Assembly (NCBI RefSeq): GCF_964213995.1
Contig: NW_027590388.1
Location: forward strand, 248,001-312,000
Source: Mustelus asterias
Taxonomy: Eukaryota
Reading direction: 5' to 3'
DNA length: 64,000 nt
Made by a program: the position numbers and the translations under genes. Below, piece by piece: positions 11,456 to 63,649 of the stretch. The stretch's first letter is position 1. Every line of letters begins with the position of its first letter. Below the pieces are notes generated by a model, which saw nothing but the letters and a program-made list of their open reading frames with translations, was not told where the DNA came from and made no database searches.

Positions 11456-11459
11456 ATCC

Positions 11460-17224: not shown

Positions 17225-18166
17225 TCACTTGTGAACTCGCCGGTGTCTCAGCAGCTTTGATGACTGAGTGAATCCTTTCCCACAGTCAGAGCAGGTAAAC
17301 AGTCTCTCCCCAGTGTGAACTCGCTGGTGTGCCCGCAGGTTGGATGAATTACTGAATCCTTTCTCACACTGAGAGCAGGTGAATGGTCTCTCTCCGGTGT
17401 GAACCCGCTGATGTGTCTGCAGGTGGGATGACTGAGTGAATGTTTTCCCACAATTTGGGCAGGTGAATGGTCTCTCCCCAGTGTGCAATCGTCGATGTTT
17501 CTGCAGATTTGATGCATAAGGGAAACGCTTCCCACACTCAGGGCAGATGAACGGCCTCTCCCCAGTGTGAACTCGCTGATGTATCAGCAGATAGGATGAA
17601 TCAGTGAATCCCTTCCCACACTCGGAGCAGCTGAACGGTCTCTCCCTGGTGTGAATTCGCTGGTGTCTCTGCAGGTTGGATGAATTACTGAATCCTTTCC
17701 CACACTCAGAGCAGATGAATGGCCTCTCCCCGGTGTGAACTCGCTCGTGTGTCTGCAGGTGGGATAACTGAGTGAATCCCTTCCCACACTCTGAACACGT
17801 GAACCATTTCTCCCCGGTGTGACCTCGCTGGTGCATCAGCAAGTTGGATGATTCACTGAATCCCTTCCCACAATCGGAACAGGTGAATGGCTTCTCCCCG
17901 CTGTGAACTCGCTTGTGTGTCTGCAGGTGGGATGAACTTGTGAATCCTTTCCCGCACTCAGGGCAGGTGAATGGCCACTCCCCTGTGTGAACTCGTTTGT
18001 GTGTCTGCAGGGAGGATGAATGAGCAAATACCTTCCCACACTCCAAGCAAATGAACGGCCTCTCCCCAGTGTGATTACATCGATGAGTTTCCAGTTGGTG
18101 TGAGAAATTGAATCCTTTACCACAGTCTCCACATTTCCACGGCTTCTCCATGGTGCTGGTGTCCAT
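17225..18166 (-). CDS. C2H2 ZNF Z5A, 11 fingers
   Basis: Intact [15 protein letters not shown]...RVHK*. Confidence 0.9.
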
Positions 18167-18957
18167 GTGTCTCTCCCAGTTTGATAGTCAGCTGAAGCCT
18201 CATCCACAACAAAACACCCGAACGGTCTCACCCCAATGTGACTGGTGCTGTCTTTTCAAGCTGTGTTGGAGTTTTTTTCCACAGTCAGTTCACTGGAACG
18301 CTCTCACTCCGATCTATGTGCGTCCATGCTTTTCCAATCACATTTATGGTTGAAATCTCTTGAAGCAGAAGAACAGACAAATATTTCTCTTTGTAGATGC
18401 CAAAGGCGGATGTTGTCCAGGTCCCGATGAATGGAGTTAATCTGTCAGATCACCATGAGTATTTGTTTTGAGATTTCTGTCTGGAAATCCTCTTCTGATA
18501 TCCTGTAACACAAATTTCCAAAATTCATCACTGTCAGTGCAACTTAGAAATTCAGAAAAGACAATTCCAATTTTTATAGAAAATTCTTTACTTTTTCCCA
18601 CTATACACCCTCCCAATTCTCCTAAAGGTGCCAATTCATGTTGGTTAACCAATCTATGCTCACCACTTCCTGTTCAAATGTGTGTAATATGCAGCACTCA
18701 TTACTTGGTTGGAGATATGGTGGGTGCAGCGAGTGATCATGATCTGGAACTGGGTGCCCACGGATCTGGTGGCATTGAAAGCAATTAAAGATTTCAAACT
18801 GAAATTGGAGGCACACTTGAAGGAAATAATCTTGCAGGAGAATGAGTAGATGGAGGGGCAATGGGTCTGACTGGATTGCTCTATAAGGAGTTGACATGGA
18901 CTCCTTCTCTATTGGAATAACGATGCCTGGAAATATATTAACATAGTTACAATGTTC

Positions 18958-19619: not shown

Positions 19620-21680
19620 AACATAATAATTAGGAACAGAAGGAGGCCACTTGGCCCCTCGAGCCTGTTCCACCATTCAATAAGATCGTGGCTGATCTGA
19701 TTGTAACCTCAACCCCACATTCCTGCCCACTACCCTCACCAATAATCTTCCATCTCCTTGTTAATCAGGAGACCATCTTGCTCTGTCTTCAAAATATTCC
19801 AAGATTCTGCTTCCTCTGCCTTTTGAGGAAGAGAGTTCCAAAGATCCATGATCCTCTGAGAGAAAACACTTCTCCCTATCTCTGTCTGAAACACATTTTT
19901 AAACAGTGTCTCCTTGTTCAAAATTCTCCTGCAAGAGAAAAAACATCCTTTCCACAACAACCCAGTCAATAGCCCTCAGAAACGTAAAAGGTTTCAATCA
20001 AGGCCCCTCTTGTTCTTCTAAACTCCAGTGAACAAGCCCAGATTCTCCAATCTTTCCTCATAAGACAACCTGCCAATTTCTGGTATTAGTCTGGTAGACA
20101 TTCTCTGAACTGCTTCCAATGCATTTACATTTTCCTTAAATAAGGAGTTCAATACTTTAACAACACTCCAGATGTGGTCTCACCAGTGTCCTGTATGACT
20201 GAAACATAAACTCACTCCTTTTGTAACCACTTTCCTCACAATAAACAATGACATTCTATTAACTTTCCTGATTACTTGCTGTACCTGCATTCCAGCCTTT
20301 TGTGATTCATGCACTAGGACACCTCTGAATCTCAGAGCTCTGCAACCTCTCACTATTTAATGTTTTTTGAAATATTTGGCAGGAATTCCTGCCAAAATTG
20401 ATAATTCCACATTTGCCCATGTTATGCTCCATTTGCCAAATATTTGCCCACTAGCTGAACTTTATCTACATCCCTTTGTAGCCTCCTTACATCCTCTTCA
20501 CAACTTACTTTTCTACCTTTGTGTCCTCAGCAAATTTAGCGACCATGCTTGCATCCAAGTCATTTACATAAATTGTTAAAAGTAGAGGTCCCAGTTCTGA
20601 TCGCTTTGGCACACCACTCGTCACATCCTGTCAACCAGATAAAGATCCATGTGTGCCAACTCTGTTTCCCGTTAGCTCGCCAATCGTCTTTCCATGCCAT
20701 ATTACCCCCACACTGTGAGATTCTATTTTCCACATTAAGCTTTGATGTGGCAGCTTATCAAATGCATTTTGGAAATCTAAGTACAGTACATTCACCTTTG
20801 CTGCCCCATTATCCAATATATAAAGGCACCATCTCCCAGATGTCCCCTTGAGAGGGAGAGCTGACTGGTGGTCACTTAACCTGAGGATCATAAATTCATA
20901 AGATATAGGAGCAGAATTAGACCTTCGGCCAATCGCGTCTGTTCCACCATTCTATCATGGCTGATAACCTCCTCATCCCCATTTTCCTGCCTTCTCCCCA
21001 TAACCCTTCAACCCATTACCAATTAAAAATCTGTCCAACTCCTCTTTAAATTTACTCACTGTCCCAGCATCCACCACCCTTTGGGACAGCGAATTCCACA
21101 GATTCACAACCCTTTGGGAGAAGCAGTTTCTCCTCAACTCTGTTTTAACTTTGCTGCCCCTTATCCTAAGGCTATGACCTCTCATCCTAGAATGCCCCAG
21201 AAGAGGAAGCATCCGTTCCACGTCTGCTTTATCCATACCTTTCATCATCTTGGATCACCACACCTCACGTGAGGGGCAAGATTGAGGAGACGGCACCTTC
21301 ATGAATAACCTTGGTTGGCACGAGAATTGAAACTGTGCTGTTGGTGTCGCTGTGCATCACAAACCAGCCACCCGGCCAACTGAGCGAACCGACCCCCTTT
21401 ATCCAAAGTATATGTGACTCCTTCAAAGAACTCCAATAAATAGGTCGAATATGATTTCCCTTTCTCAAACCATGCTGACTCTCTCTGGTTGTCTGAATTT
21501 TTCTCATTCTCATGATATCTTTAATAAAGATATTTTCCCTACATCAGGTTTTATATTAAGTGGTCTTTAGTTTCCTTTTTGCCTCCCTCCTTTTTTTGAA
21601 TAAAGGAGTTACATTTGCTACTTTGCAATCTACTGGAATCTTCCTCAAATCTCGCGACTGTTAGATAATTAAAACGGTGC
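19620..21680 (-). mobile_element. Nested stack: old CR1, then a tRNA SINE (20830-20890 plus 21252-21395), then a younger CR1 (20891-21251)
   Basis: YLDFQNAFDKLPH and FSQRVVNLWNSL motifs; ggatca duplicated at 20885 and 21252. Confidence 0.7.
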
Positions 21681-27488: not shown

Positions 27489-28578
<1,090 letters not shown>

Positions 28579-43609: not shown

Positions 43610-44908
43610 TCACTTATGAATTCGCTGATGCGTCAGCAGGTTGGATTTCCGAGTAAATCCCTTCCCACACTTGGAGCAGGTGAATGGTTTCTCCCCAGTG
43701 TGAACTCGCTGGTGTTCAATTAGTATCGACGATCGACTGAACCCAGTCCCACATTGAGAGCACATGAATGGCCTCTCGTCAGTGTGAACACGTTGGTGGG
43801 ACCTCAGATCTCCAGATCGTTTGTAGCACTTCCCACAGTCTGGGCATTTGAAAGGTCTCTCCTCAGTGTGAACCCGCTGGTGAGCCATGAGTTGGGAGGA
43901 CTGAGTGAATCCCTTCCCACAATTGGAGCAGGTGAACGGTCTCTCCCCAGTGTGAATTCGCTGGTGTTCAGTGAGATGGGATGATTGCCTGAATCCAATT
44001 GCACAGTGAGAGCACCTGAACGGTCTCTTGTCAGTGTGAACATGCTGATGGGATTTCAGTTCTCCAGAACTTTTATAGTAATTCCCACAGTCTGGGCACT
44101 TGAAAGGTCTCTCTCCAGAGTGAACCCGCTGGTGCACCATGAGTTGGGATGACCGACTAAATCCCTTCCCACACTCCGTGCAGGTGAATGGCCTTTTCCC
44201 AGTGTGAATTCGCTGGTGTACAGTGAGTTGAGATGATTGCCTGAACCCAGTCCCGCAGTGAGAGCACCTGAACGGTCTCTCCTCAGTGTGAACGCGTTGG
44301 TGGTACGTCAGTTCCCAGGAGCTTTTATAGCCCTTTCCACATTCTGAACAGTAAAAAGGTCGTTCCTCAGTGTGAACTTGCTGATGGCGTGTCAGTTCCC
44401 GGGAACTTTTAAAGCACTTCCCACATGCTGGACATTTAAAAGGTCTCTTGTCAGTGTGAACTCGCTGGTGTGATAGCAGGTTGCTTGTGTGAATGAATCC
44501 CTTCCCACACTGGGAGCAGGTGAATGGCCTCTCCCCGGTGTGAACTCTCTGGTGTACCAGCAGATTGGATGACTGAGTGAATCCCTTCCCACATTTGGAG
44601 CAGGTGAATGGTCTCTCTCCAGTGTGAACTTGCCGGTGTCTCAGCAGGTTGAACGACTGAGTGAATCCTTTCCCACACACAGAGCAGGTGAACGGCCTCT
44701 CCCCAGCATGAACTCGCTGGTGAATTTCCAGTTCAGATGGGGAATAGAATCCTTCCTCGCAGTCCCCACATTTCAACGGCTTCTCTTCAGTGTGACGGCA
44801 CTTGTGGTTCGTGGGGTCAGATGATTCATACACAGAACACGCGTACAGATTCTCCCCACTGCAATCGATGCTTTTTTCTTCCATGTTCAAAATCCAATCA
44901 TGATACAA
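43610..44908 (-). CDS. C2H2 ZNF Z2B, 14 fingers (probable ATG 44884)
   Basis: Intact ORF; paralogue of the frameshifted Z2A. Confidence 0.92.
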
Positions 44909-45144
44909 TGGTCACAATAAATTGGGCGACTCCATCAGATCCTGATGTGATGTTCGCTTTGTGTTTCCCGACTGAAAATCCTCCTCTTCTAAAACCCTGT
45001 GAAACTGATTTAAATGGAAAAAAGGCAGTGAGCGCGAACCCACAGAAACACAAAGGCAGGTTGTGAAATTGAGCTGAATGAATCTGGTCATTTGTGGGGC
45101 CGGCACTGGGAAAAAGTTACCATGGAAACTGCCGGATTGTCATT

Positions 45145-45415
45145 GGGCGGCACGGGGGCACAGTGATCAGCTCTGCTGCCTCACAGCGCCAGGGACCCGT
45201 GTTTGATTCCCAGCTTGGGTCACTGTCTGTGTGGAGTTTGTACGCTCTCCCTGTGTCTGCGTGGGTTTCCTCCGGGTGCTCTGGTTTCCTCCCACAGTCC
45301 GAAAGACATGCTGCTTAGTTGCATTGACCCGAACAGGTGCTGGATTGTGGCAACTAGGGGAATTTCACAGCAACTTCATTGATGTGTTAATGTAAGCCTA
45401 CTTGTGACTAATAAA
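45145..45415 (+). mobile_element. V-SINE-like SINE type B (paralogue of 7705)
   Basis: Same position and sequence as in copy A. Confidence 0.8.
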
Positions 45416-46225
45416 TTTTTAACTTTAAAAAAACCCACCTGATTCACTAATGTCCTTCAGGGAAGGAAACCTGCTCCCTGGTCAGGGGCGACACAAGACT
45501 CTGGACAATCTGGGAGAAGAGATCGAGGGGGAAGAGGCAGAGAGACAGAAGTAGGAGAGGGTGAGACAGAATTGGGCAGCACAGGAAAAAAGGAATTTCA
45601 AATATTTCAAACTCCCACAACCTCCACCACCTCGATGGAGCAATGAAGCAGGCGTATGGGAACACCATCATCTCCAAGTTCCTTTTCAACTCACACACCA
45701 TCCTGACGTGTCTGACATCCAGTACTGGATGAACAGAAACTTCCTCCAATTGAATATTAAGAACAAAGCCGTTGTCTTCAGTCCTCACAACAGACTCCAC
45801 TCTCTCTCCCTGGCAACTGTCTGAGGCTGAACCAGACTTCTCACAACCTCAGTGTCCTGTCTCACCCCAAACTGAGCTTCCAGCCACATATCCTCACCAT
45901 CACCCAGAATGTCTATTTCCACCTCAGTAACATCGCCCGAGTCTCAAATCATCTTGTTCAGAAACTCTCATCCATTCCTTTGTTACCTCTGGACTTAACT
46001 ATCCCAGAGCACTCTTTGCTGGCCTCCCACATTCAGCCTCCCTGCAATCCTGAGGTCATCCAAAACTCTGCTGTCTGTGTAATTATTCAAGACTTGTTCA
46101 CCCATCACCCCTGTGCTCACTGACCTATAAAGGTTCCTGTTTAAGAACCACTAACATTTTAAAACTCCCGTTCTTGTTTCCAAATTTCTCCATGACTGCG
46201 ACCACTCCTCTCTCTGTAATATCCT

Positions 46226-46730
46226 TCAGTCACACAATTCTCCATCATCGATGCTCTCCCCTAATTCCAGCCTCTCTTCAGTGTGAACATATTGATGGGA
46301 TGTCAGTTCCTGGGAACTTTTATAGCACTTCCCACAGTCTGGGCATTTAAAAGGTCTCTCGTCAGTGTGAACTCGCTGTTGTGTCATGGGTAATGATGAC
46401 TGAGTGAATTGTTTCCCACATACAGAGCAGGTGAATGGCCTCTCCCCCAGGTGAAGCTGCTGGTGTTTCAACAGGTTGTTTGACTTATTGAATCACAACC
46501 CACACTCAGAGCCAGTTCACAGCCTCTCCCTTGTGTGACTGCGTTGCTGAGTTTCCAGTTTAGACGGTAACTGAAGGCCTTCTCACAGTCCTCATGTTTC
46601 CACAGTTTTCCCCGGTGTGATAGTGTCTCGACAGGTTAGATGATTGGTTGAAGCCTCATCCACACATAGAACATATGTACGGTTTTTCCCCACTGTGAAC
46701 AGTGCTTTTTCCTTCAATGTTCAAAATCCC
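46226..46730 (-). pseudogene. ZNF pseudogene Z3B
   Basis: Degenerate fingers and the same truncation as Z3A. Confidence 0.8.
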
Positions 46731-47453
46731 ATAATTTGGACAACTCCATCTGATGTGAATGTTTGGTTTGAGTTTCCTGACTACATATCCTCCTCTTTCA
46801 ATACCTCATGAAATTAATTTAAAACAGAGAAAAGGGAGTGAGAGAGTGCCCACAAAAACACAAAGGCAGGTTATGAAATTGAGCTGAATGAATCTGGTAA
46901 TCTGTGGGGTCGACACGAGGAAAAAGTGACCATGGAAGCTCCTGGATTGTCACAAAAACCCAACTGGTTCACTAATGTCCTTTAGGGAAGGGAACTTACC
47001 ACCCAGTCTGGGCCTACACAAGACTCTGGCCTCTATAGGAGGGGAGAGAGGTGAAAGAGGCAGGAACAAAGGAGGTGATTTTCTACTTTGAATTCTAAAA
47101 CTTTGACAAAATTCTCCAAACCTTCAACTTCCACACCAAGGAGGACCAGGTGTATGCGAACAGCATAATCTCCAAATTCCCCTCCAACTCGCACACTGTC
47201 CTGCCCTGTCCGATATCCAGTACTGAATGAACAGCAATGTGCTCCATTTAACTACTGGGAAGAAGAAAACCATTGTTTCTCTTCAGTCCCCGCTACAAAC
47301 TCCACTCCCAAACTACTGACTCCATCCTTTTCCCTGACAACTGTCTGAGACTGAACCGGACTGTTCCCAGCCTCAATAACAGCTTTCACTCTAAACTGAG
47401 CTCCTGACCTCATATCTGAATAATCACCAAGACTGCCAATTTCCATCTCAGTA

Positions 47454-48165
47454 CAAAGATCAAAGAACAAAGAACATTACAACACAGGGACAGGCCCTTC
47501 GGCCCTCCAAGCCTGCACCAACCATGCTGCCCGACTGAACTAAAACCCCCTACCCTTCTGGGGACCATATCCCTCTATTCCCATCCTATTCATGTACTTG
47601 TCAAGATGCCCCTTAAAAGTCACTACCGCTTCCACTACCTCCCCTGGCAACGAGTTCCAGGCACCCACTACTCTCTGTGTAAAAAGTCTGCCTCGTACAT
47701 CTCCCTTAAACCTCGCCCCTCGCACCTTAAACCTATGCCCCCCAGTAATTGACTCTTCCATCCTGGGAAAAAGCTTCTGACTATCCACTCTGTCCATGCT
47801 TCTCATAATCTTGTGGACTTCTATCAGGTCTCCCCTCAACCTCCTTCGCTCCAGTGAGAACAAACCAAGTTTCTCCAACCTCTCCTCATAGCTAATGCCC
47901 TCCATACCAGGCAACATCCTGGTAAATCTTTTCTGTACCCTCTCCAAAGCCTCCACATCCTTCTGGTAATGTGGCGATCAGAATTGAACACTATATTCCA
48001 AGTGCGGCCTAACTAAGGTTCTATAAAGCATCAACATGAGTTGCCAATTTTTAAACTCAATGCCCCGGCCGATGAAGGCAAGCATGTCATATGCCTTCTT
48101 GACTAGTTTCTCCACCTCCATTGCCACTTTCAGAGACCTGTGTACCTGATGTGACCTGTGTACCT
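47454..48165 (-). mobile_element. CR1 3' fragment specific to copy B
   Basis: ORF 47540-47956; absent from copy A at ~10014. Confidence 0.88.
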
Positions 48166-48295
48166 GACCTGAGTAACATCACCTGACTCTGTCCTTAGAC
48201 ATGATGTGTAGTTGCCGGCGTTGGACTGGGGTGAACACAGTAAGAAGTCTCACAACACCAGGTTAAAGTCCAACAGGTTTATTTGGTAGCAAATA

Positions 48296-48332
48296 CCTTT
48301 AGCTTTCGGAGCGCTGCTCCTTCGTCAGATGG
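48296..48332 (-). ncRNA. Minimal hammerhead ribozyme motif
   Basis: ccau-CUGACGA-a-ggagc/agc/gcucc-GAA-AGCU-A-aagg (one helix I mismatch). Confidence 0.62.
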
Positions 48333-48640
48333 AGTGGAAATGTGCTCTCAAACAGGGCACAGAGACACAAAAAACAAGTTACAGAATACTGATTAGAATG
48401 CGAATCCCTACAACCAGCCAGATCTTAAAGATACAGACAATGTGGGTGGAGGGAGCATTAAGCACAGGTTAAAGAGATGTGTATTGTCTCCAGACAGGAC
48501 AGCTAGTGAGATTCTGCAAGTCCAGGAGGCAAGCTGTGGGGGTTACTGATAATGTGACATAAATCCAACGTCCCGGTTTAGGCCGTCCTCATGTGTGCGG
48601 AACTTGGCTATCAGTTTCTGCTCAGCGATTCTGCGCTGTC

Positions 48641-49935
48641 ATGGATTCATGAGGGGAAAGTCGTGCTTGACGAACATGTTGGATTTTTATGAAGATGTGA
48701 CTAGGGCGGTTGATGGAGGAGAACCGGTGGATGCGGTGTTTTTGGATTTCCAAAAGGCGTTTGATAAGGTGCCCCATAAAAGGCTGCTGAAGAAGATTAG
48801 GGCACACGGAGTTGGGGGTAATGTGTTAAAGTGGATTGGGGACTGGCTATCCGACAGGAAGCAAAGAGTCGGAATAAATGGGTGTTTTTCCGGTTGGAGG
48901 AAGGTAACTAGTGGCGTGCCGCAGGGATCGGTACTCGGGCCGCAACTGTTTACCATTTATATAGATGATCTGGAGGAGGGGACGGAGTGTAGGGTAACGA
49001 AGTTTGCAGACGACACAAAGATAAGTGGAAAAGTGAATCGTGTGGAGGACGGAGAAGATCTGCAGAGAGATTTGGACAGGCTGAGTGAGTGGGCGAGGAT
49101 ATGGCAAATGGAGTATAACGTTGAGAAATGCGAGGTTATACACTTTGGAGGAAATAATAACAAATGGGATTACTATCTCAATGGAAACAAATTAAAACAT
49201 GCTACCGTGCAAAGGGACCTGGGGGTCCTTGTGCATGAGACGCAAAAGCCCAGTCTGCAGGTACAACAGGTGATCAAGAAGGCAAATGGGATGTTGGCCT
49301 ATATTGCGAAGGGGATAGAATATAAAAGCAGGGATGTCTTGATGCACCTGTACAGGGCATTGGTGAGGCCGCAGCTGGAATACTGTGTGCAGTATTGGTC
49401 CCCTTATATGAGGAAGGATATATTGGCATTGGAGGGAGTGCAGAGAAGGTTCACCAGGTTGATACCGGAGATGAGGGGTTTGGATTATGAGGAGAGGCTG
49501 AGGAGATTGGGTTTGTACTCGTTGGAGTTTAGAAGGATGAGGGGGGATCTTATGGAGACTTATAAGATAATGCGGGGGCTGGATAGGGTGGAGGCGGAGA
49601 GATTCTTTCCACTTAGTAAGGAAGTTAAAACTAGAGGACACAGCCTCAAAATAAAGGGGGGTCGGTTTAAGACAGAGTTGAGGAGGAACTTCTTCTCCCA
49701 GAGGGTGGTGAATCTCTGGAATTCTCTGTCCACTGAGGTGGTGGAGGCTACCTCGCTGAATATGTTTAAAGCGCGGATGGATGGATTCCTGATCGGTAAG
49801 GGAATTAAGGGTTATGGGGATCAGGCGGGTAAGTGGTACTGATCCACGTCAGATCAGCCATGATCTTATTGAATGGCGGGGCAGGCTCGAGGGGCTAGAT
49901 GGCCTACTCCTGCTCCTATTTCTTATGTTCTTATG
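48641..49935 (+). mobile_element. Young CR1 (RT domain to 3' end, frame open to 49842) nested in the PLE
   Basis: HGFMRGKSCLTN, FADDTK; (ttcttatg)n tail; short tgtc duplication. Confidence 0.93.
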
Positions 49936-50824
49936 TCGTGTGTCGTGAAGGCCGCCTTGGAGAACGCTTACCTGAAGATCCAAGGCTGAATGCCCACGAC
50001 TGCTGAAGTGCTCCCCCACAGGAAGAGAACAGTCTTGCCTGGTGATTGTCGAGCGGTGTTCATTCATCCGTTGTCGTAGCATCTGCATGGTTTCCCCAAT
50101 GTACCATGCTTCGGGACATCCTTTCCTGCAGCGTATCAGGTAGACAACGTTGGCCGAGTTGCAAGAGTAGGTACCGTGTACCTAGTAGGCGGTGTTCTCA
50201 CGTGAGATGATGGCATCCGCGTCGATGATCCGGCACGTCTTGCAGAGGTTGCTGTGGCAGGGTTGTGTGGTGTCGTGGTCACTGTTCTCCTGAAGGCTGG
50301 GTAGTTTGCTGCGGACAATGGTCTGTTTGAGGTTGCGCAGTTGTTTGAAGACAAGAAGTGGGTGTGTGGGGATGGCCTTGGCGAGATGTTCGTCTTCATC
50401 AATGACACCGCTCGACAATCACCAGGCAAGACTGTTCTCTTCCTGTGGGGGAGCATTTCAGCAGTCACGGGCATTCAGCCTCTGATCTTCAGGTAAGCGT
50501 TCTCCAAGACGGCCTTCACGACACACCACAACGCAGAGTCGCTGAGCAGAAACTGATAGCCAAGTTCCGCACACATGAGGATGGCCTAAACCGGGATGTT
50601 GGATTTACGTCACATTATCAGTAACCCCCACAGCTTGCCTCCTGGACTTGCAGGCCGTTCTGTCTGGAGACAATACACATCTCTTTAACCTGTGCTTAAT
50701 GCTCCCTCCACCCACATTGTCTGTATCTTTAAGATCTGGCTGGCTGTCGGGATTCGCATTCTAATCAGTATTCTGTAACTTGATTTGTGTGTTTCTGTGC
50801 CCTGTTTGAGAGCACATTTCCACT

Positions 50825-50861
50825 CCATCTGACGAAGGAGAAGCGCTCCGAAAGCTAATGG
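50825..50861 (+). ncRNA. Minimal hammerhead ribozyme motif
   Basis: ccau-CUGACGA-a-ggag/aagcg/cucc-GAA-AGCU-A-augg. Confidence 0.72.
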
Positions 50862-51517
50862 TATTTGCTACCAAATAAACCTATTGGACTTTAACCTGGT
50901 GTTGTTAAAACTCTTACTCTGTCCTTAGAAACATAGAAATCCTACAGTGCAGAAAGAGGCCATTCGGCTCATCGAGTCTGCACCGACCACAATCCCACCC
51001 AGGCCCTATCACCATATCCCTACATATTTTACCCGCTAATCCCTCTAACCTACGCTTGATTCTGTTCGTCTGCAGCTGGAACTCTCGTCCATTCCTTCAA
51101 TAACTCCAGACTTAACTATCCGAATGCATTCCCGGCCTCCTACATTCAATCTCCCTGAAGTCTTGAAGTCATCCAAATCTCTGCTGGCCATGTGCTTACT
51201 CACATCAAGTCTTGTTCATCATCACCCCCGAGCTCACTGACCTGCAAAGGCATTTAGTGTGAAAAACACTTCTTTGAAATGCCCTGGGAAAGTCTATGAC
51301 ATGGAAGACACATAAATACAGATTGTTATTATTGACATGTATCATTGTTCCTTCATCATCACTGGGTGAATAACCTGTAACTCTTACCTAATGCATTGTG
51401 GGAGCACCTTCACCACATGGACTGCAACGGTTCAAGAAGGTCAAACATCATCTTGCCCACAGGTACCCGAGGATGGGGAATGTTTGCTGCTGGTCTTGTT
51501 AGTGAAAGGACACAGTC

Positions 51518-51811
51518 TATTTATTTATTAGCATCATAAGTAGGCTTACATTCACATTGCAATGAAGTTACTGTGAAAACCCCATAGTCGCCACACTCCG
51601 GCGCCTGTTCGGGTTCACTGAGGGAGAATTCAGCATGGCCAATGTACCTAACCAGCACGTCTTTCGGACTGTGGGAGGAAACCAGAGCACCCAGAGGGAA
51701 CTCACGCAGATACGAAGAGAACGTGCAAACTCCACACAGACTCCACAAGGCTGGGAATCGAATCCAGTGTCCCTGGCGCTGTGAGGCAGCAGTGCTAACC
51801 ACCGTGCCACC
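51518..51811 (-). mobile_element. V-SINE-like SINE type B (paralogue of 10497)
   Basis: Collinear with copy A. Confidence 0.8.
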
Positions 51812-51893
51812 TTAATGTTCACATCAAAGCAAAAACAGTGACTTAACTATTTGGGACTTTCAAAGGTGGTGATTTTAACCAACATCCCCCACG

Positions 51894-52478
51894 GTGGTGA
51901 ATGTTGAGTATAAAAGTTGGCAAATTATGTTACAGTCATATCAAATATTGGTTAGGTCACATTTGGAATACTGTGTCCAATTCTGGTCGGCATTCTACCA
52001 GAAGGACGTGGTGGCTTTGGAGGGAGTACAGAAAATGTTTACCAGGATGTTGCATGGTATGGAGGGTATTAGCTATGAGGAAAGATTGAATAAACTGGAA
52101 AGATGGAGACCATGGGACAACCTGATAGAAGTTTATAAAATTATGAGGGGCGTAGGTAAGGTAACAGTTGGAAGCTTTCTTCCTGGACAGAAATGACAAT
52201 CACAAGGGGGCACAATTCAAAGTAAGGGGGGGAAAAGTTCAGTGGAGACACGGGGGGGGACGTTTTTTTTACACAGTGGGTGGTGGGGCCTGGAATGCAC
52301 TGCCAAGTGAGGTGGTCGAGGCAGATACATTAGCAACATTTAAAACTTATCTGGATAGAAACATGAACAGACGGTGTATAGAGGGATATAAGCGGTTGGT
52401 TTAGATAGGACAACGTGATGGGCGCAGGCTTGTGGGCTGAAGGGCCTGTTCTTGTGCTGTACTGTTCTTTGTTCTTTA
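51894..52478 (+). mobile_element. Decayed CR1 3' fragment (paralogue of 10872)
   Basis: LVRSHLEYCVQFWS. Confidence 0.85.
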
Positions 52479-52481
52479 TCC

Positions 52482-52822
52482 CCTATCCACACCATAGGGG
52501 AACAGTGCGCAGGCGCAGTACCGAACATGGTCGGGAGCATGCGCGATGTCAGTGATGGCGAAGGGGAGAGAGGATCCTTTTGTCTGATCCGCAGCCGGTG
52601 AAGGTGTGGAAACGCGCAGGGCCGATGGAGTCGGCGGGTGAACGGGGAGGGTTTCTAAATACCTGCTGAAAGCCTCAAACCGCGAATACGGACCTGCAGG
52701 TTCCGCGTTTGCAGCTCCGGTTTGTCCTCCTGGGGCGAAGACCCCGGTTACCAGCCGCCATCTTAGTTCAGCGGAGGGCAGAGCGCATGCGCTGACGTCT
52801 TGGTGACGCCCATTGTCACACA
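52482..52822. promoter_or_regulatory. Promoter module, copy B of P2
   Basis: NRF1, YY1 and tgacgt motifs; minus-strand donor cag|gtattt near 52663. Confidence 0.65.
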
Positions 52823-53325
52823 ACAGAGAGTGGACGGGATTCAGGATTTCTGTTTTTAACTGGGTCCTAGTGCCCGAGTCACATAAAAGGATCAGTCACA
52901 CTGGTCAGAACTTTCTGGTTCAGTTCGGAAGGTTCCCTTTGGTTTTGTTGATGCTTGGTTGTTGATTTTTGTCTTTCAGTTCGTTTGGACCATATGATTG
53001 GAGGGAATAAGAAAGGAAAGAATGTTCCATCCGAACTAGAATTGTCTGTTCTGAATTTCTATCCTGTATTTACACTGATAACTTCTGTAAACTCCTTTTA
53101 CAGGGGATTAGGATGGGAGGATTGACAGGTGGGAAACTTAAATCAAACATCACATTGAGATCTGACAGTCATTCGATTCATCAGGACCTGAATATCAATG
53201 TGGAAGGAGAAATGTTTGTTTGTTCTGTCTGTGGGAAAAGATTTCAAACATCAGTGTGACTGGAAAAGCAGCGAGACACACACACCCGAGTGACAGCGTT
53301 CCAGTGAACTGACTGTGAAAAGAGC

Positions 53326-54829
53326 TTGAACCAGTTACACAGCCTGAAAAAACATCACACCATTCACAGCAGGGAGGAACCGTACATGTGCAGTGTGTGT
53401 AGTCAACTGATCATCAACCTGGAGAGACACAAGGATACTGGCACCATGGAGAAACCATGGAAATGTGAGGAACATAGAACAGTACAGCACAGAACAGGCC
53501 CTTCGGCCCACGATGTTGTGCCGAGCTTTATCTGGAACCAAGATCAAGCTGTCCCACTCCCTATCATCCTGGTGTGCTCCATGTGCCTATCCAATAACTT
53601 CTTAAATGTTTCTAAAGTGTCTGACTCCACTATCACTGCAGGCAGTCCATTCCACACCCCAACCACTCTCTGCATGAAGAACCTACCTCTGATATCCGTC
53701 CTGTATCTCCCACCACGAACCCTATAGTTATGCCCCCTTGTAATAGCTCCATCCACCCGAGGAAATAGTCTTTGAACGTTCACTCTATCTATCCCCTTCA
53801 TCATTTTATACACCTCTATTAAGTCTCCCCTCAGCCTCCTCCGCTCCAGAGAGAACAGCCCTAGCTCCCTCAACCTTTCCTCATATGACCTACCCTCCAA
53901 ACCAGGCAGCATCCTGGTAAATCTCCTCTGCACTCTTTCCAGCGCTTCCACATCCTTCTTATAGTGAGGTGACCAGAACTGCACACAATATTCCAAATGT
54001 GGTCTCACCGAGGTCCTGTACAGTTGCAGCATAACCCCACGGCTCTTAAACTCCAACCCCCTGTTAATAAAAGCTAACACACTATAGGCCTTCTTCACAG
54101 CTCTATCCACTTGACTGGCCATCCCAGCTGGAAATCCATCAGCGCACTCACACTGGGGAGAGGCCATTCACCTGCTCCATGTGTGGGAAGGGATTCAGAG
54201 AGTCATCCAACCTGCTGCAACACCAGCGAGTTCACACTGACCTGAGACCTTTTAAATGCCCAGACTGCGGGAAGGGCTATAAAAGTTCTGGGGACCTGAT
54301 GTCCCATCAACGTGTTCACACTGACCAGAGGCCATTCAGGTGCTTTCACTGCGGGACTGGGTTCAGGAAATCATCTGAATTCACTGTACATCAGCGCACT
54401 CACACTGGGGAGAGGCCGTTCACCTGCTCCATGTGTGGGAAGGGGTTCATTAATTCATCCAACCTGCTGAGACACCAGCGCACTCACTCTGATGCAAGAA
54501 CTTTCAAATGTCCTGACTGTGAGGAGAGCTTTAAAAACAGTGATAATCTGCTGAGACATCGACGCACTCACACTGGAGAGAGGCCGTTCACCTGCTCTGA
54601 GTGTGGGAAGGGATTCACTCGATCAGCCGCACTGCTGACACACCGGCGAGTTCACAGCGGAGAGCGGCCATTCGCCTGCTCGGAGTGTGGGAAGAGATTT
54701 ACTTATTCATCTCATCTATTGAAACACCAGCGCACTCACACTGTGGAGAGACCATTCACCTGCTCCATGTGTGGGAAGGGATTCACTCAATCTTCTAACC
54801 TGCTGACACACCAGCAAATTCACAAGTGA
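53326..54829 (+). pseudogene. ZNF Z4B disrupted by a CR1 in finger 1; residual ORF 54179-54829
   Basis: MEKPWKCE, then the CR1, then WPSQLEIHQ; ~19 nt of target sequence deleted. Confidence 0.88.
53472..54115 (-). mobile_element. Young CR1 3' fragment
   Basis: ORF 53544-54167 with CR1 C-terminal motifs; gttctatgttc tail. Confidence 0.92.
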
Positions 54830-56040
54830 GTGCAGAGGTTGGAGTTCTCTGTATTGCTGCTGTTGATCACATTGAGGACTAAATGTGTGGATTAAACCTG
54901 AGGTGTGTAAGAAATGTGTCCCAGCTGCTCTTCCATGGTTCAGAGCTCCTCGGCACGGAACAGAGGCTCCTTTACAACTGTGTTTAGAGTCAGGAAGAAC
55001 AACAGTGAATGCTGGAAACATGCCGTCAAATCAGAGATTGGTGTAAAACTGGGATCTGTTCCTGAGTGAGAGTGAAACAGCAGGTTTAAGTTTCCTGTCT
55101 GGAACTGATTGTGGTAATTATGGTAATCATAGAATCCCAACAGTGCAGAAGGAGGCCATTTGGCCCATCGAGTCTGCACCGACTCTCTGTCAGAGCATCT
55201 TCCCCAGACACACCCCTCCCACGCTAGCCCCATTACCCCACGCATTTACCCCACTAATTCCCCGAACCATAACATCTTGGGACATCTATGGGGCAATTTA
55301 GCATTGGTCAATCTGCCTAACCTGTACATCTTTGGACTGTGGCAGGCAACCAGGGAGCATTTCCATGGAGATGCTGCTTCGACCCAGAGTGTAATGGTAA
55401 TGCTGCTGCACTTTGATACGACTGCTCAGACATTAGACTGTGTCAGCTCTTATTGATACTGAATAAAATCTAACCACTGTCACCAATAAGGGTTATCACT
55501 GGCAATCATTTCAGAGTTTGGGGAAAGAGAATAAAGGGCTAATGGACACCCCGAATCCCAATTCTATAGAATAAAAGGATGTTCACAATACTCTGGGCCC
55601 AAATGGTTTCTCTTCAGCTCCTCTGCACCCTGTTACTGTGACTCCACACTTTGGGCACATGGACTGAACCCCAGGGGTTCCATCACCATCTGCCCCAATC
55701 GCCCCGTCTCCTGCCCCAATTGGCTGGAGGCCCATTTCCCAGTCAGTCCTCCAGCACCTTCCTGTCTCTCTATCAGTGCAACGCCCAGGGCAGCTTCCCA
55801 ATTGAGGCTCAGGCCCTGTTATTCTCAGCGAAATTCAGCTCTCAACTCCGTCACCTGGCTGTCACTAACATGAGCAACAGAGAGAGAAAGGTGCCCCAGG
55901 CTGAAATGGGAACTTGAAACTTGTGGCTCCAAACAAACTCTTCAACATTTGTGCATTCAATACCTGTTTTTGTATGAGGTTGTTATTTTGACATTGAGGC
56001 ACTGGAGGCGAAGAATAACTTTCCCTTTCCAACTTTGAAT

Positions 56041-56519
56041 TAGAACCATAGAACCATAGAAAATTACAGCTCAGAAACAGGCCTTTTGGCCCTTCTTGTC
56101 TGTGCCGAACCATTTTTTGCCTAGTCCCACTGATCTGCACTTGGACCATATCCCTCCACACCCCTCTCATCCATGAACCCGTTCCAAGTTTTTCTTAAAT
56201 GTTAAAAGTGACCCTGCATTTACCACTTTATCCGGCAGCTCATTCCACACTCCCACCGCTCTCTGCGTGAAGAAGCCCCCCCTAATATTCCCTTTAAACT
56301 TTTCTCCTTTCACCCTTAACCCATGCCCTCTGGTTTTTTTCTCCCCGAGCCTCAGCGGAAAAATCCTGCTTGCATTCACTCTATCTATACCCATCAAAAT
56401 CTTATACACCTCTATCAAATCTCCCCTCAATCTTCTACGCTCCAGGGAATAAAGTCCCAACTGAATCAATCTCTCTCTGTAACTCAGTTTCTCAAGTCCC
56501 GGCAACATCCTTGTGAACC
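56041..56519 (-). mobile_element. CR1 3' fragment specific to copy B
   Basis: ORF 56167-56508; (ttctatgg)n tail. Confidence 0.88.
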
Positions 56520-56534
56520 TGTCTATTGTCTATT

Positions 56535-56963
56535 GTATCAGCCACGGAGCAGTGGATCCACACGCTTCCACAAGAAACTGCAAAGGGTGGTGAACGTACC
56601 CAGTCCATCACACAAACCAGCCTCCCATCCATTGCCTCTGTCTACACTTCCAGCTGCTTTGGAAAAACAGCCAGCATAATCACGGACCCTACACAGCCCA
56701 GACATTCTCCCTTCCACCTTCTTCCGTTGGGAAAAAGATACAAAAGTCTGAGGACACGTACCAACTGACTTCCCTGCTGCCATCAGACTTTTGAATGGAC
56801 CTACCTCATATTAAGTTGATCTTTCTCTACATTCTAGCTGTGACTGTAGCACTACATTCTGCACTCTCTCCTTTCCTTCTCTATGTATGGCATGCTTTGT
56901 ATCGCGTGCAAGAAACAATATTTTTCACTGTACACTAATACATGTGATGATAATAAATCAAAT
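56535..56963 (+). mobile_element. Rex1/Babar-like 3' end (paralogue of 14555)
   Basis: Collinear; same peptide remnants. Confidence 0.68.
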
Positions 56964-56964
56964 C

Positions 56965-57372
56965 TTCACTCCGAATCTGAAGATTGTTCTTTCCAATCCC
57001 AGTCCATTGACCTGAGGCCAACATTCAAAGTGCCAGCACTGAGGGAGTGCTGCATTATTAGAGCTGCTGCCTTTAGGATGAGATGCCAACCCAAGTACCC
57101 CATCTGCCCCTTCAAGGACATAGATGTTACCATGGATATGATTTTGAAGAAGAGCAGGGGGGGGCTATCCCCAGAGTCCTGACCAATATTTATCAATCAA
57201 CATCACTACAGATCATCTGCTCGTGATCATGTTGCTGCTTTTGGGATCTTGCTGTGTACACATTAGCTGCCACATTTCCTGCATTACAACAATGACCACA
57301 CTTCAAAGCTGCTTCATTGGTTGGAAAGTGCATTGGGACATCCTGTGGTCCTGAACGATGCTAAATGCAAGT
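56965..57372 (+). mobile_element. Deu-domain SINE (SacSINE1/AmnSINE1-like); copy A keeps only 15003-15148
   Basis: ggatgagatg..aacc, gaagaagagcagggg, cattacaaca.tgac.acacttcaaa, taaatgcaagt. Confidence 0.65.
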
Positions 57373-59173
57373 TTTTAATTTCAGATTTGTGTTCCCTGAT
57401 CTTGATATCTGAATTTTAATTGATTTCAGCCACCCCCCAACTTGCCATTTAACAAATTCACCTTGGATCGAAGAATATTTTAACCAATTAAGGCAACAGC
57501 AGGAATCTACGGTGGGTAAATTTTAAAAATAAGTTTATTCGACAAGAAATGTTTACTTCAAACATTGGCTTTTACAGCTTGATGTGGGTGATCAGTCTGT
57601 CGAAGGTTAACCCTCTCTGGCTCCTTCTTTGACAGGAATTCTTGTGGATTTCAACCTCAGAAGTCTGGTTCCTTCTTTGACAATAATTTACCTGGAACTC
57701 GACCCTGTGAATATTCAGTACTTGGCTGGCAGGGAAGATGTTGGGAATCTCTACTTTTATCCCCAAAGTGACCATTACCTGACATCAGAGTTGGGCTGAT
57801 TGTGACGTGACACTTGGTCAATTTGGTTACCAGATTAATTTAACCGGATCCCCAATTACTGACACCACCTTCTCTCATTATCTTAGACAGGAAAACAATT
57901 GCACAGTTTCATACTAACCCTTTATCTGATTCTATACAATCAGGTATTCAGACAATTTCAAATTCTGAGACAAATCAGAGCTTGAAGGTCTCTCTTACCA
58001 GTACATTTATCATCATTGCACATTCTTCACATACACAGCAATTCAGATGATATGTTTTTACAGCAAATAAAACTCAGCCTTTTACTATAAGCCGACTTGT
58101 GACACTAATAGATAAACAAAAAAATGACATTCTTTATCGATTTATTAACTGTAACTCAATTAAATCTCACTACTTCTCCAGTTATTTGTTACTGACTGCG
58201 AGCTAATTAATACAGTAATCTTTAGTTAATAAACTTGGTTCCTACAAGATAGACTGGTTCAAAAAGACAGTTTGTCGAAAGACAACAGCTTTCTTCCTTA
58301 CTAATCCTGACCAGACTGAACAATTAACCTTATTCTTCAGCTGGACTTTGGAAGAATATGATATCCTGTAGCTTATCAAAATTATAAAATAATTTCTTTC
58401 TTTAAACAACTTCTGCCGGCTCTGCAGTTTCTGGAAACATTTCAGGTTATTCAGTGTTAATATTTTAAAATAAAGATCTACCCTTTATATAATTGTCTAT
58501 TACACTGAGTCACTGATGATAGCTTATTCAAGGTTCATTACTGAATAACCATATGTTACATATAAAATCAATTTGTAGCTAATAAAGCCAGTGACAGAAG
58601 GTGAACAGACTGTTAGAAGCCACATGTTCGATTTTAAAATGGTTTCCTTGACCTTGTTACTTATAGCAATGAATATGGTATGAAAGTGATTGAATTTTAA
58701 AACTAAATTTGATGACTCAGGCCTGCAATTTCCTCCATTACAACAGTCACTACAATTCACAGAACTTCATTCACTGTATAATGTTTCAGGACAATGGCAA
58801 AGATAGATAGAGAAACAAGGTGGTGAAAGGTTATCAGGGGGAGGTGGGAATGTGGAGTTGAGGTTTCAATTAGATCAGCCATGATTATGTTGAATGGCAG
58901 AACAGGCTCCTGATTCACATGTTCATCTGACACCCTGTGGTTGTGAGAGGTGCTATAGAAATGCAATTTTTTTTTGTTTCCCCACAATGTTGGATAATTA
59001 CACTCAGTCCCTGCATCAAAATCATTGTTAAAGGTTGAGTCTAAATTTGACACATTTTGAATGCTGGGGTGGTTTTCTCCAAAGAGAAGACGAAGAAGTG
59101 ATCTGATGGAAGTCTTTAAGATTATGAAGGGGTTCAATAATCCAACGGGGATTTAATGAGAAACCTCTTTACC

Positions 59174-61395
59174 CAGCGAGTGGTGAGACTGTGGAACTCA
59201 CTATCACAGCGAGTGGTGAGACTGTGGAACTCACTATCACAGCGAGTAGTGAGACTGTGGAACTCACTATCACAGCGAGTGGTGAGACTGTGGAACTCAC
59301 TATCACAGCGAGTGGTGAGACTGTGGAACTCACTATCACAGCGAGTGGTGAGACTGTAGAACTCATGACCACAGCGAGTGGTGAGAATGTGGAACTCACC
59401 ATCACAGCGAGTGGTGAGAATGTGGAACTCACCATCACAGCGAGTGGTGAGAATGTGGAACTCACCATCACAGCGAGTGGTGAGAATGTGGAACTCACTG
59501 TCACAGCGAGTGATGAGAATGTGGAACTCACCATCACAGCGAGTGGTGAGACTGTGGAACTCACTATCACAGCGAGTGGTGAGAATGTGGAACTCACTAT
59601 CACAGCGAGTGGTGAGAATGTGGAACTCACTATCACAGCGAGTGGTGAGACTGTAGAACTCATGACCACAGCGAGTGGTGAGAATGTGGAACTCACCATC
59701 ACAGCGAGTGGTGAGAATGTGGAACTCACTATCACAGCGAGTGGTGAGACTGTAGAACTCATGACCACAGCGAGTGGTGAGACTGTGGAACTCACTATCA
59801 CAGTGAGTGGTGAGACTGTGGAACTCACTATCACAGCGAGTGGTGAGACTGTGGAACTCACTATCACAGCGAGTGGTGAGACTGTGGAACTCACTATCAC
59901 AGCGAGTAGTGAGACTGTGGAACTCACTATCACAGTGAGTGGTGAGACTGTGGAACTCACTATCACAGCGAGTGGTGAGACTGTGGAACTCACTATCACA
60001 GCGAGTGGTGAGACTGTGGAACTCACTATCACAGCGAGTGGTGAGACTGTAGAACTCATGACCACAGCGAGTGGTGAGAATGTGGAACTCACCATCACAG
60101 CGAGTGGTGGGAATGTGGAACTCACCATCACAGCGAGTGGTGAGAATGTGGAACTCACCATCACAGCGAGTGGTGAGAATGTGGAACTCACTATCACAGC
60201 GAGTGGTGAGACTGTAGAACTCATGACCACAGCGAGTGGTGAGAATGTGGAACTCACCATCACAGCGAGTGGTGAGAATGTGGAACTCACTATCACAGCG
60301 AGTGGTGAGACTGTAGAACTCATGACCACAGCGAGTGGTGAGAATGTGGAACTCACTGTCACAGCGAGTGATGAGAATGTGGAACTCACCATCACAGCGA
60401 GTGGTGAGACTGTGGAACTCACTATCACAGCGAGTGGTGAGAATGTGGAACTCACTATCACAGTGAGTGGTGAGACTGTGGAACTCACTATCACAGCGAG
60501 TGGTGAGACTGTGGAACTCATGACCACAGCGAGTGGTGAGAATGTGGAACTCACCATCACAGCGAGTGGTGAGAATGTGGAACTCACTATCACAGCGAGT
60601 GATGAGACTGTAGAACTCATGACCACAGCGAGTGGTGAGACTGTGGAACTCACTATCACAGTGAGTGGTGAGACTGTGGAACTCACTATCACAGCGAGTG
60701 GTGAGACTGTGGAACTCACTATCACAGCGAGTAGTGAGACTGTGGAACTCACTATCACAGCGAGTAGTGAGACTGTGGAACTCACTATCACAGCGAGTGG
60801 TGAGACTGTGGAACTCACTATCACAGCGAGTGGTGAGAATGTGGAACTCACTATCACAGCGAGTGGTGAGACTGTGGAACTCATGACCACAGCGAGTGGT
60901 GAGACTGTAGAACTCATGACCACAGCGAGTGGTGAGAATGTGGAACTCACTATCACAGCGAGTGGTGAGACTGTGGAACTCACTATCACAGCGAGTGGTG
61001 AGACTGTGGAACTCATGACCACAGCGAGTGGTGAGACTGTAGAACTCATGACCACAGCGAGTGGTGAGAATGTGGAACTCACCATCACAGCGAGTGGTGA
61101 GAATGTGGAACTCACCATCACAGCGAGTGGTGAGAATGTGGAACTCACCATCACAGCGAGTGGTGAGACTGTGGAACTCACCATCACAGCGAGTGGTGAG
61201 AATGTGGAACTCACCATCACAGCGAGTGGTGAGACTGTGGAACTCACCATCACAGCGAGTGGTGAGAATGTGGAACTCACCATCACAGCGAGTGGTGAGA
61301 ATGTGGAACTCACCATCACAGCGAGTGGTGAGACTGTGGAACTCACTATCACAGCGAGTGGTGAGAATGTGGAACTCACTGTCACAGCGAGTGGT
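59174..61395. repeat. 33-bp minisatellite, 67 units plus 11 bp, derived from CR1 ORF2
   Basis: Unit cagcgagtggtgaga(c/a)tgtggaactcac(t/c)atca; a single unit is present in the paralogue at 16718-16761. Confidence 0.97.
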
Positions 61396-61833
61396 TGAGG
61401 TGAACAGCGTGAATACATTGAAGGGGAAGCGAGATACATACATGAGGGAGAAAGGAATAGAAGGATACGCTGATGGGGGGAGATGAAGAGGGGTGGGTGG
61501 AAACTTATGTGGAGTATAAATAGTGACACAGACTGATTGAGCCGACTGGCCTGGCCCTGTGCTGTCGACTCAATGGAACAGAGACAAATGTATTTTAGAT
61601 CTACCTGGAGTGCTATTAAAAGCACTATTTACTATCCAAGATAAAATAAATGTCCTTCATCAGCTTTTGTGGGTCATTTCAGTAGAAATGTGCTCTCCCA
61701 GGCTCAAAGTGCATCAACCCACTGGAATCAACATCGAGAGACCAGCCAGTCCAACAGAAAGAAACTTCACCAAAATGATTCAGTCCTGGACATGATGAAC
61801 AGCAGCAATAACAGCAGAATCCAACCCCTGTCA

Positions 61834-63027
61834 TCATTTGTGAACTTGCTGATGTCTCAGCAGCTGTGATGACTGAGTGAATACCTTCCCGCACACAGAG
61901 CAGGTAAACTGTTTCTTCCCAGTGTGAACCCGTTGGTGTGCCCACAGGTTGGATGAATTACTGAATCCCTTCCCACACTGAGAGCAGGTGAATGGTCTCT
62001 CTCCAGTGTGAACTCGCTGGTGTGTCTGCAGGTGGGATGACTGAGTAAATGCTTTCCCACAATCAGAGCAAGTGAATGGTCTCTCCCCAGTGTGCACTCG
62101 TCGGTGTTTCTGCAGATTGGATGCATCTGGGAATCCCTTCCCACAATCGGGGCAGGTGAACGGTCTCTCCCCAGTGTGAACTCGCTGGTGTATCAACAGA
62201 TGCGATGAATCAGTGAATCCCCTCCCACATTCGGGGCAGGTGAATGGCCTCTCCCCAGTGTGAATTCGCTGGTGCATCAACAGATGGGATGAGCGACTAA
62301 ATCCCTTCCCACAGGTAGAGCAGGTGAATGGTTTCTCTCCAGTGTGAACTCGTTGGTGCATCAGCAGACTGAATGAATCACTGAATCTCATCCCACACAT
62401 TGAGCAGGGGAATGGTCTCTCTCTGGTATGAACCCTCTGGTGCATCAGCAGGTTGGATGAATCAGTAAATCCCTTCCCACACTCGGAGCAGGCGAACGGC
62501 CTCTCCCCAGTGTGAACTCGCTGGTGCCTCAACAGGTTGGATGAATCACTGAATGCCTTCCCACACTCAGAGCAGCTGAATGGTCTCTCCCCGGTGTGAA
62601 TGCGCTCGTGTGACTGGAGGTGGGATAACTGAGTGAATTCCTTCCCGCACTCCGAGCAGGTGAACCGCCTCTCCCTGGTGTGAACTCGCTGGTGCATCAA
62701 CAGGTTGGATGAATCACTGAATCCCTTTCCACAATCGGAGCAGGTGAATGGCCTCTCCCCAGTGTGAACTCGCTTGTGTGTCTGCAGGTGGGATGAACTT
62801 GTGAATCCTTTCCCACACTCAGGGCAGGTGAATCGCCTCTCCCCTGTGTGAACTCGTTTGTGTGTCTGCAGGGAGGATGAATGAGCGAATCCCTTCCCAC
62901 ACTCCAAGCAAGTGAACGGCCTCTCCCCAGTGTGACTGCGTCGATGAGTTTCCAGCTGATATGGGAAATTGAATCCTTTACCACAGTCTCCACATTTCCA
63001 TGGTTTCTCCATGGTGTAGGTGTCCAT
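61834..63027 (-). CDS. C2H2 ZNF Z5B, 14 fingers
   Basis: Intact [15 protein letters not shown]...HQQVHK*; acceptor ttttacag near 63343. Confidence 0.92.
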
Positions 63028-63649
63028 GTGTCTCTCCCAGTTTGACAGTCAGTTGAAGCCTTGTCCATACATAAAAAACCTGAATAGTGACTAGTGATGT
63101 CTTTTCAAGCTGTGTAACTGGTTGAAGCTTTATTCCACAGTCAGTGCACAGGAACACCCACTCATGTCTGTGTCTCCACGTTTTCCAATCACACTTATGG
63201 TTGAAATCTCTTGAAGCAGACAGAACAGAGAAATATTTCTCTTTATAGATTCCAAAGGCTGATGTTGTTCAGGTCCCGATTTATCAAGTTAATCTGGCAG
63301 ATCACCACGAGTATTTGTTTTGAGAAGTCCAATTCTGATATTCTGTAAAATGAGTTCCAAAATTCATCACTGTCAGTGCAACTTAGAAATTCAGAAAAGA
63401 CAATTCTAGTTTTTATAGAAAATTCTTTACTTTCTCCCGCCATTCTTACCCTGCATCTAATACACATCATAGAACAACACTCGACATATCCCTGTCCTGT
63501 ATTAATTTACTGTCTCCTTAATATCAGCTATCTCCTGGGGATCCACCCCTTTAATTGTGACCATTACGAATATAGACCATCCTTTTAGCCAGACAAATAA
63601 ATGTATTAAGCTGAGGGAGCTAAAGAATGTTAATGTCTTTAAAAGAGAA

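Follow-up and report, generated by a model that had tools for sequence, protein, structure and literature searches.

A 33-bp minisatellite within a CR1 remnant of Mustelus asterias and its single-unit paralogue in a zinc-finger gene cluster

We analyzed a 64,000-nucleotide stretch of the Mustelus asterias genome (the window), in which C2H2 zinc-finger genes form a cluster interspersed with LINE fragments. In one copy of a segmental duplication within this cluster (copy B) the remnant of a CR1-type LINE carries a 2.2-kb array of 33-bp units, and the paralogous remnant (copy A) carries one unit. With high confidence we interpret the array as a real CR1-derived minisatellite of the Haber-Louis type that expanded in copy B. 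In this model (Genomics 1998), as outlined in parts of PMC6947457 and PMC3389668, slippage or unequal crossing-over duplicates a motif that lies between short direct repeats, and amplification follows. The features on which this reading is based are collected in Table 1.

Table 1. Location in the window of the array, its CR1 host, the paralogous copy and neighboring features
Feature	Position	Strand	Remark
Minisatellite, 67 x 33 bp, 12 unit types	59174..61384	+	TRF and unit comparison
Incomplete terminal unit, 11 bp (second copy of the seed direct repeat)	61385..61395	+	
Putative pre-expansion seed, one 33-bp unit and 11-bp direct repeat	16718..16761	+	
CR1 ORF2 3' remnant left of the array	59064..59173	+	tblastn E 7e-10, alignment
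CR1 ORF2 terminus and 3' end on the right side of the array	61396..61570	+	tblastn E 5e-15; right boundary approximate
Paralogous CR1 remnant (copy A), unexpanded	16605..16935	+	tblastn E 2e-12; right boundary approximate
Control CR1 end, same motif, unexpanded; 11-bp exact repeat (15-bp with one mismatch), 33-bp spacing	21076..21119	-	
Segmental duplication, copy A, three zinc-finger genes	6430..18599	.	
Segmental duplication, copy B, containing the array and insertions	43869..63438	.	
C2H2 zinc-finger ORF, copy A (Z5A), 11 zf-C2H2 matches	17225..18187	-	
C2H2 zinc-finger ORF, copy B (Z5B), 14 zf-C2H2 matches	61834..63048	-	
AATAAA, copy A, 265 nt after the stop	16955..16960	-	removed by a 4-bp gap in B
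AGTAAA variant poly(A) hexamer, retained in B 201 nt beyond the stop	61628..61633	-	in A at 16994-16999
AATACA variant hexamer, still present in B where AATAAA was lost	61589..61594	-	
Open frame, 756 codons, antisense to Z5B, first ATG 59365	59128..61398	+	
Open frame, 811 codons, first ATG 61443	59134..61569	-	
Open frame, 819 codons, first ATG 61439	59169..61628	-	

The array consists of exactly 67 full units without a single indel, the number already counted in the earlier note, and is closed by an exact 11-bp tail, CAGCGAGTGGT. TRF describes it by a period of 33, 67.3 copies, 93% matches and 0% indels. The units fall into 12 types with 10 segregating sites and differ from each other by 7.2% on average. 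With head-to-tail units of 33 bp and a total of 2.2 kb, the array lies within the usual range of minisatellites (units of 10-100 bp, arrays of up to a few kb), and it is derived from a transposable element (TE) in that its unit is homologous to the element and the whole array is embedded in a copy of it. DNA of two units folds weakly (-7.7 and -8.1 kcal/mol, calculated without a shuffle control), and no hairpin mechanism is claimed. An Rfam scan of positions 56000-64000 returned no matches. The array has no evident job and is described here as a neutral transposon-derived minisatellite.

Both flanks of the array match the C-terminus of an RVT_1-bearing ORF found elsewhere in the window, which served as the tblastn query for the CR1 remnants, in agreement with the proposal that the array arose within such a remnant. 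We take the host element to be a CR1, a name that is based on general knowledge and the earlier note together with the ORF2 C-terminal motif shared with window elements ending in short tandem tails; the remnant around the array is without an RT domain. Copy A has a single unit at 16718-16750 followed by the identical 11 bp at 16751-16761 and reads QRVVRMWNSLPQRVV, as had been noticed before. By blastn, the copy A remnant is 88-90% identical to the flanks of the array in copy B. The 5' truncation and an internal deletion of the CR1 are common to A and B, as are the flanks; since truncation and deletion are the same, the two remnants represent one insertion that was later duplicated. The element lies antisense to the zinc-finger gene Z5B, and the array lies 438 bp beyond its stop codon (61834-61836), close to the roughly 440 bp given earlier.

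The unexpanded state appears to be ancestral by the state of the CR1 family and by a third homologue. Sixteen unexpanded CR1 ends of the window were scored, including copy A, and each has one motif. In the database, 118 of the 120 matches listed (623 matches among 8000 scored candidates) have no array; the query was built from the array-bearing ENA record P0067 and ranks arrays first, so that the remaining 2 of 120 are no frequency, and one of the 120 records is without the motif. The third homologue, ENA record P0061, contains one unit, and its match to the locus extends from the CR1 across the flank as far as the stop of the zinc-finger gene (tblastn E 7e-54 for A and 3e-34 for B). Among 165 residues compared, 92 are common to all three sequences, 21 side with A, 16 side with B (9 of them around a frameshift in A), 11 are different in all three and 8 are gapped. 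Since the remaining 17 residues differ from both A and B, P0061 is a third copy, neither A nor B. The three sequences form a near-trichotomy in which P0061 is unrooted, and a search among 15 candidates of 90-289 aa found no further homologue of P0061 besides itself.

The 11 residues encoded by the unit of copy A are identical to those of P0061. In B, every one of the 67 units deviates from the copy A unit: the number of differing bases is one in 9 units, two in 33, three in 16, four in 8 and five in a single unit. Only one sub-lineage, comprising 12 units, retains the ancestral base at unit position 31. Judged from these sequences, the unit of A looks ancestral to all 12 variants in B. The earlier claim that the pre-expansion state is preserved in the paralogue and that the expansion took place in B is supported by the single motif of the CR1 family, by P0061 and by this ancestral-looking unit.

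It is improbable, although with some points in its favor, that the array predates the duplication (or the last homogenization between A and B) and that copy A collapsed to one unit by a deletion between the first and the last 11-mer. Such a deletion would leave exactly one unit and 11 bp, the A/B history is mosaic, and the average divergence of the B units from the unit of A (7.2%) is similar to that of the local flanks (5.5-6.7%). However, a collapse requires two events, a gain and an exact loss; P0061 must have lost the array as well or have branched earlier; and the unit of A matches no unit in B and shares CR1-like residues with P0061. We regard as still less probable that the array was delivered ready-made by an array-bearing CR1 subfamily or was made in reverse transcription at insertion. 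Two other records, P0067 and P0152, have arrays at this motif, and excerpts of PMC3389668 suggest that some TE-derived repeats start at retrotransposition. Yet A and B derive from the same insertion and A has a single unit, the arrays of P0067 and P0152 differ in period (36-nt) and sequence, and the 11-residue unit of B was found in no other array among the best 150 of 2234 matches, which are mostly unrelated repetitive proteins.

Expansion in copy B left a characteristic pattern of unit variants. Among the 67 units, variant gtagaactcatgacc is present in nine, agtagt and cagtgagt in four each, and gtgatg in three. Words of three consecutive units are repeated 13 times compared with a shuffle mean of 4.0 (p=1e-4), and words of four units five times compared with 0.54 in shuffles (p=0.0015); the longest exact block comprises five units and is not significant alone (p=0.059). 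When units 1-27 are aligned with gaps to units 21-53, the score of 29.2 beats 1000 of 1000 shuffles (maximum 24.0), which indicates a degenerate block duplication of 20-26 units. The shuffles and the block alignment bear out the statement of the earlier note that the named variants recur in multi-unit blocks and reflect higher-order duplication. Four-gamete violations among the units point to exchange inside units or to recurrent change. The array combines interspersed variants, block duplication and inter-unit exchange, as expected of a minisatellite, and no clear polarity of diversity was found along its thirds (6.5%, 8.4% and 7.0%). The pattern of growth is read from one allele and covers slippage, unequal exchange or conversion alike.

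Tandem arrays are often mis-sized in assemblies, and the array or its length could in principle be an artefact. We consider this highly improbable given the 12 unit types, the ten segregating sites and the mosaic units, which are unlike a duplicated or collapsed read, and given that the blocks are degenerate rather than identical, indels are lacking and the flanks on both sides are unique and clean.

The divergence between copies A and B is not uniform. Mismatches amount to 3.0% in the left part of the duplication (209/7072), 6.0% in the middle (153/2566) and 11.4% in the right part (72/634); this heterogeneity is highly significant (chi-square p=3e-28), as is the middle-to-right difference taken by itself (p=8e-6). 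The last step, to 11%, lies just to the right of the CR1 remnant. The stepped divergence suggests conversion or a mosaic duplicate. Since it ranges over 3-11% along the duplication, there is no single clock, and since the units have diverged about as much as the local flanks, the array has roughly the age of the local split and is not newborn; it could be as old as the duplication itself. The earlier proposal of a datable birth is therefore not supported, and only a relative upper bound on its age would follow from these sequences.

The following scenario would account for these observations. The two copies themselves display its first stages, which are the insertion of a 5'-truncated CR1-type LINE in antisense orientation about 0.3 kb beyond the zinc-finger stop, with an 11-bp repeat 33 bp apart at the end of its ORF2, and the duplication of the region with the CR1 already inserted. 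The repeat at this spacing is due to the protein motif, in which QRVV recurs 11 residues later. The two 11-mers in B would then have undergone slippage or unequal exchange, doubling the 33 bp between them, and a duplication of this kind would leave an incomplete last unit. Once at least two units were present, their longer homology would have allowed duplication of single units and of blocks of about 20-26 units; the pattern of such growth is visible in the array, and its molecular route is presumed. Exchange within units and repeated rounds of duplication would have brought the array to 67 units, with about ten substitutions emerging and spreading in the meantime.

The locus shows both the direct repeat bounding the unexpanded unit (11 bp in A) and the partial terminal unit (the tail in B) of the Haber-Louis scheme, in which arrays likewise close with a partial unit. 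It differs in that its repeat of 11 bp is at the top of the 5-10 bp quoted in the excerpts on that model, that the repeat originates from a protein-coding motif, and that the unexpanded state is preserved 42 kb away. Because it fits this microhomology model, the locus is a further case of a known route of minisatellite origin.

The same CR1 motif may have seeded arrays elsewhere. In 113 single-motif records, repetition 11 positions on is seen for the third residue of QRVV in 81 records, for the fourth in 57, for the first in 28 and for all four in 2. At the DNA level, an exact run of at least 7 bp at 33-bp spacing was found in 5 of 16 CR1 ends of the window, an enrichment over the 242 of 20000 random 81-bp windows; after exclusion of copy A and of one member of each of two near-identical pairs the count is 3 of 13. 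Exact repeats of 11 bp are less common than is normal in the family (2/113), and the one at the array locus may reflect an earlier homogenization there. Another CR1 end in the window has an equal repeat and is unexpanded (Table 1), thus the 11-bp repeat permits but does not force the birth of an array.

ENA records P0067 and P0152 contain 8 and 9 tandem motifs, respectively, at the same ORF2 position with a 12-residue (36-nt) period, and in P0067 CR1 ORF2 sequence is present on both sides (E 2e-12 upstream). The flanks of the two records agree at 12 of 25 and 12 of 20 residues, and their arrays are probably separate events; by their different period and sequence, both would also be separate in origin from the 33-bp array. 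P0018 and P0115, with 11-residue repeats resembling the motif, were not counted, since a CR1 flank is not shown (best E for P0115 0.13-0.74), and five records flagged at 24-residue spacing were dropped because the signal was a downstream Trp and not an array. We tentatively propose, at slightly less than even confidence, that the C-terminal motif of CR1 ORF2, with two VV pairs 11 residues apart, is a recurring minisatellite seed across animal lineages; as part of this proposal, the motif would hard-wire 33- and 36-bp-spaced microhomology into CR1 copies.

The array would matter more if it changed the 3' end of a zinc-finger mRNA. The earlier note pointed out that copy B is without the AATAAA of copy A, which is confirmed by the 4-bp gap, and that the 3' UTR of Z5B might consequently run into the array. 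The second part stands only partly: AGTAAA and AATACA of B are both located between the Z5B stop and the array, thus the loss of AATAAA does not imply read-through, and partial read-through is possible, judged from the hexamers. In its strong form, this reading holds that the loss of AATAAA leads to read-through of Z5B with a 2.7-kb repeat-filled 3' UTR and perhaps a translated repeat ORF starting at ATG 61443 or 61439. We consider it unlikely. It agrees with the absence of the scanned hexamers from the array (the next canonical one for Z5B is ATTAAA at 59152, past the array), with two ATG-starting sense-strand frames of 769 and 756 codons, with the intact 14-finger ORF and splice- and promoter-like sequence of Z5B, and with residues of P0061 at the AATAAA site that would be compatible with an intact signal. 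Against it, the two retained hexamers lie upstream of the array, and both are listed as significant vertebrate poly(A) signals in excerpts of PMC6616101, where AAUACA is cited as rescuing the loss of AAUAAA in Xenopus. Furthermore, the repeat ORFs are downstream of the main stop and behind five other ATGs, and their frames are open at the chance rate.

Three frames across the array, counted stop to stop, are open (Table 1), with lengths close to the 735-818 codons reported before, while the CR1 frame itself is broken by stops. These open frames follow from the unit length: in 3000 column permutations that kept the variant pattern, 2.5 of 6 frames were open on average, and three or more were open with a probability of 0.50. 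The ORFs are therefore no longer than expected by chance, and codon-level constraint is not seen at low power: synonymous changes make up 3, 2 and 3 of 11 variants in the open frames, compared with 25, 22 and 29 of 99 possible changes, shares as random and without a synonymous excess. Relatives were sought for the plus-strand and CR1 frames, and the two minus-strand frames were scanned with Pfam only. For the plus-strand frame, a profile search gave 0 of 7999 candidates at E<=0.001 and the best score in the Atlas search (0.88, with 148 shared features) was below the lead threshold. Pfam listed 36, 2 and 0 families for the three frames; these were rejected as summed weak matches to the repeat, and no single stretch in the rows shown passes alone. 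The suggestion that the array is raw material for a de novo ORF is thus not sustained by frame length, codon pattern or plus-strand relatives.

Several further observations concern the surrounding cluster. Upstream of Z5B, similarity to copy A extends no further than 63438. The intron of Z5B and its exon-1-like region (63455-63914) instead match 2472-2930 at 81%, and a stretch of 89 bp (63663-63751) matches 23484-23572 at 98%. From these matches, the 5' end of Z5B may derive from another paralogue. The paralogous zinc-finger ORFs at 6634-7470 and 43610-44911 are about 97% identical; the copy A member is shorter than its copy B partner (278 vs 433 codons) and its end is out of the finger frame, which suggests a frameshift. 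A pair of young CR1 copies in opposite orientation (29965-31933, minus strand; 48553-49842, plus strand) is 98.5% identical over 686 bp, and both hold long ORF2 pieces with RVT_1. Another RT fragment at 4922-5809 (weak RVT_1, E 2e-6) presumably resembles a Penelope-like element.

TRF detected four other non-coding arrays in the window. The 95-bp x 8 array (28641-29406), with a 6-bp partial last unit, is located upstream of the minus-strand zinc-finger ORF 27523-28596. Each of its units holds what looks like the splice acceptor of this exon, so that the acceptor is present eight times, and the array may be of more functional interest than the 33-bp array. It has five single-unit paralogues (22873-22967, 7540-7627, 44981-45068, 9355-9443 and 46790-46878), including two pairs that are the segmental duplication's own copies. 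The 18/37-bp array (24278-24665) directly precedes a plus-strand donor-like site and would be placed in a 5' UTR; the single-copy sequence to which it aligns is found in the exon-1-like part of Z5B (minus strand, about 63790-63830) and at 2780-2940. The 38-bp x 6 array (23930-24167), with a 10-bp partial last unit, lies in promoter-like DNA rich in GC and CpG (62% GC, CpG o/e 0.73) and has no single-unit relative in the window. The degenerate 69-bp array (42214-42666, 76% matches) is one that we take to be a common repeat of cartilaginous fishes. By these alignments, the birth of an array with a preserved paralogue is not rare in this window, as two further arrays have single-unit paralogues. 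Shorter shark chromosomes have more simple tandem repeats, according to excerpts of PMC10620051.

TE-derived minisatellites are known from several genomes. In the portions of PMC3389668 available, 23% of human minisatellites are TE-derived, 300 of 7,276 are flanked by 5-20 bp repeats, AluS and LTR12 contain internal hotspots, and only 6% of the TE-derived repeats are assigned to known routes; other examples in the excerpts at hand are Alu-derived arrays (Jurka and Gentles 2006) and mouse arrays derived from B1 and MaLR. The present array is similar to these in that part of a TE copy was amplified in place, and differs in its CR1 ORF2 seed and in its 67 units, compared with an Alu mean of about 2.3-2.4 (PMC3389668, same portions). 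In the supplement table of that paper, the labels 'CR1' and 'L3b' have 0 entries, L2a 36 and L2b 37, a count that does not cover the bare label 'L3'.

CR1-related satellites of chicken include the HinfI repeat and Cen2, 3, 4, 7 and 11 (PMC6947457, PMC9659126, in part). They resemble the present array as tandem repeats derived from CR1, and HinfI includes part of ORF2 and the 3' UTR; in the parts of these papers available, however, CR1 pieces are contained in a larger monomer, whereas the array described here is a single-locus 33-bp unit within ORF2. P0067 and P0152 are tandem arrays at the same ORF2 C-terminal motif with CR1 on both sides, although their period is 12 residues, their sequence is different, and they are compared here at the protein level. 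We found no report of arrays from this CR1 ORF2 motif in the open-access literature; repeat-library annotations may record them.

The initiation of minisatellites is hard to observe, since the unexpanded state is usually lost; at this locus the seed and the product are kept together, and the window also supplies an unexpanded control (21076-21119) of equal repeat length. Such births appear common in this zinc-finger cluster, and one of them multiplies a putative splice acceptor eight times. Alone, the locus is a textbook illustration, and it would matter more if the CR1 motif proves to be a general hotspot. If so, a CR1-rich genome would hold thousands of replicate seeds of graded repeat length, and the probability of birth could be measured against microhomology length and chromosomal setting, which would be a direct test of how minisatellites start.
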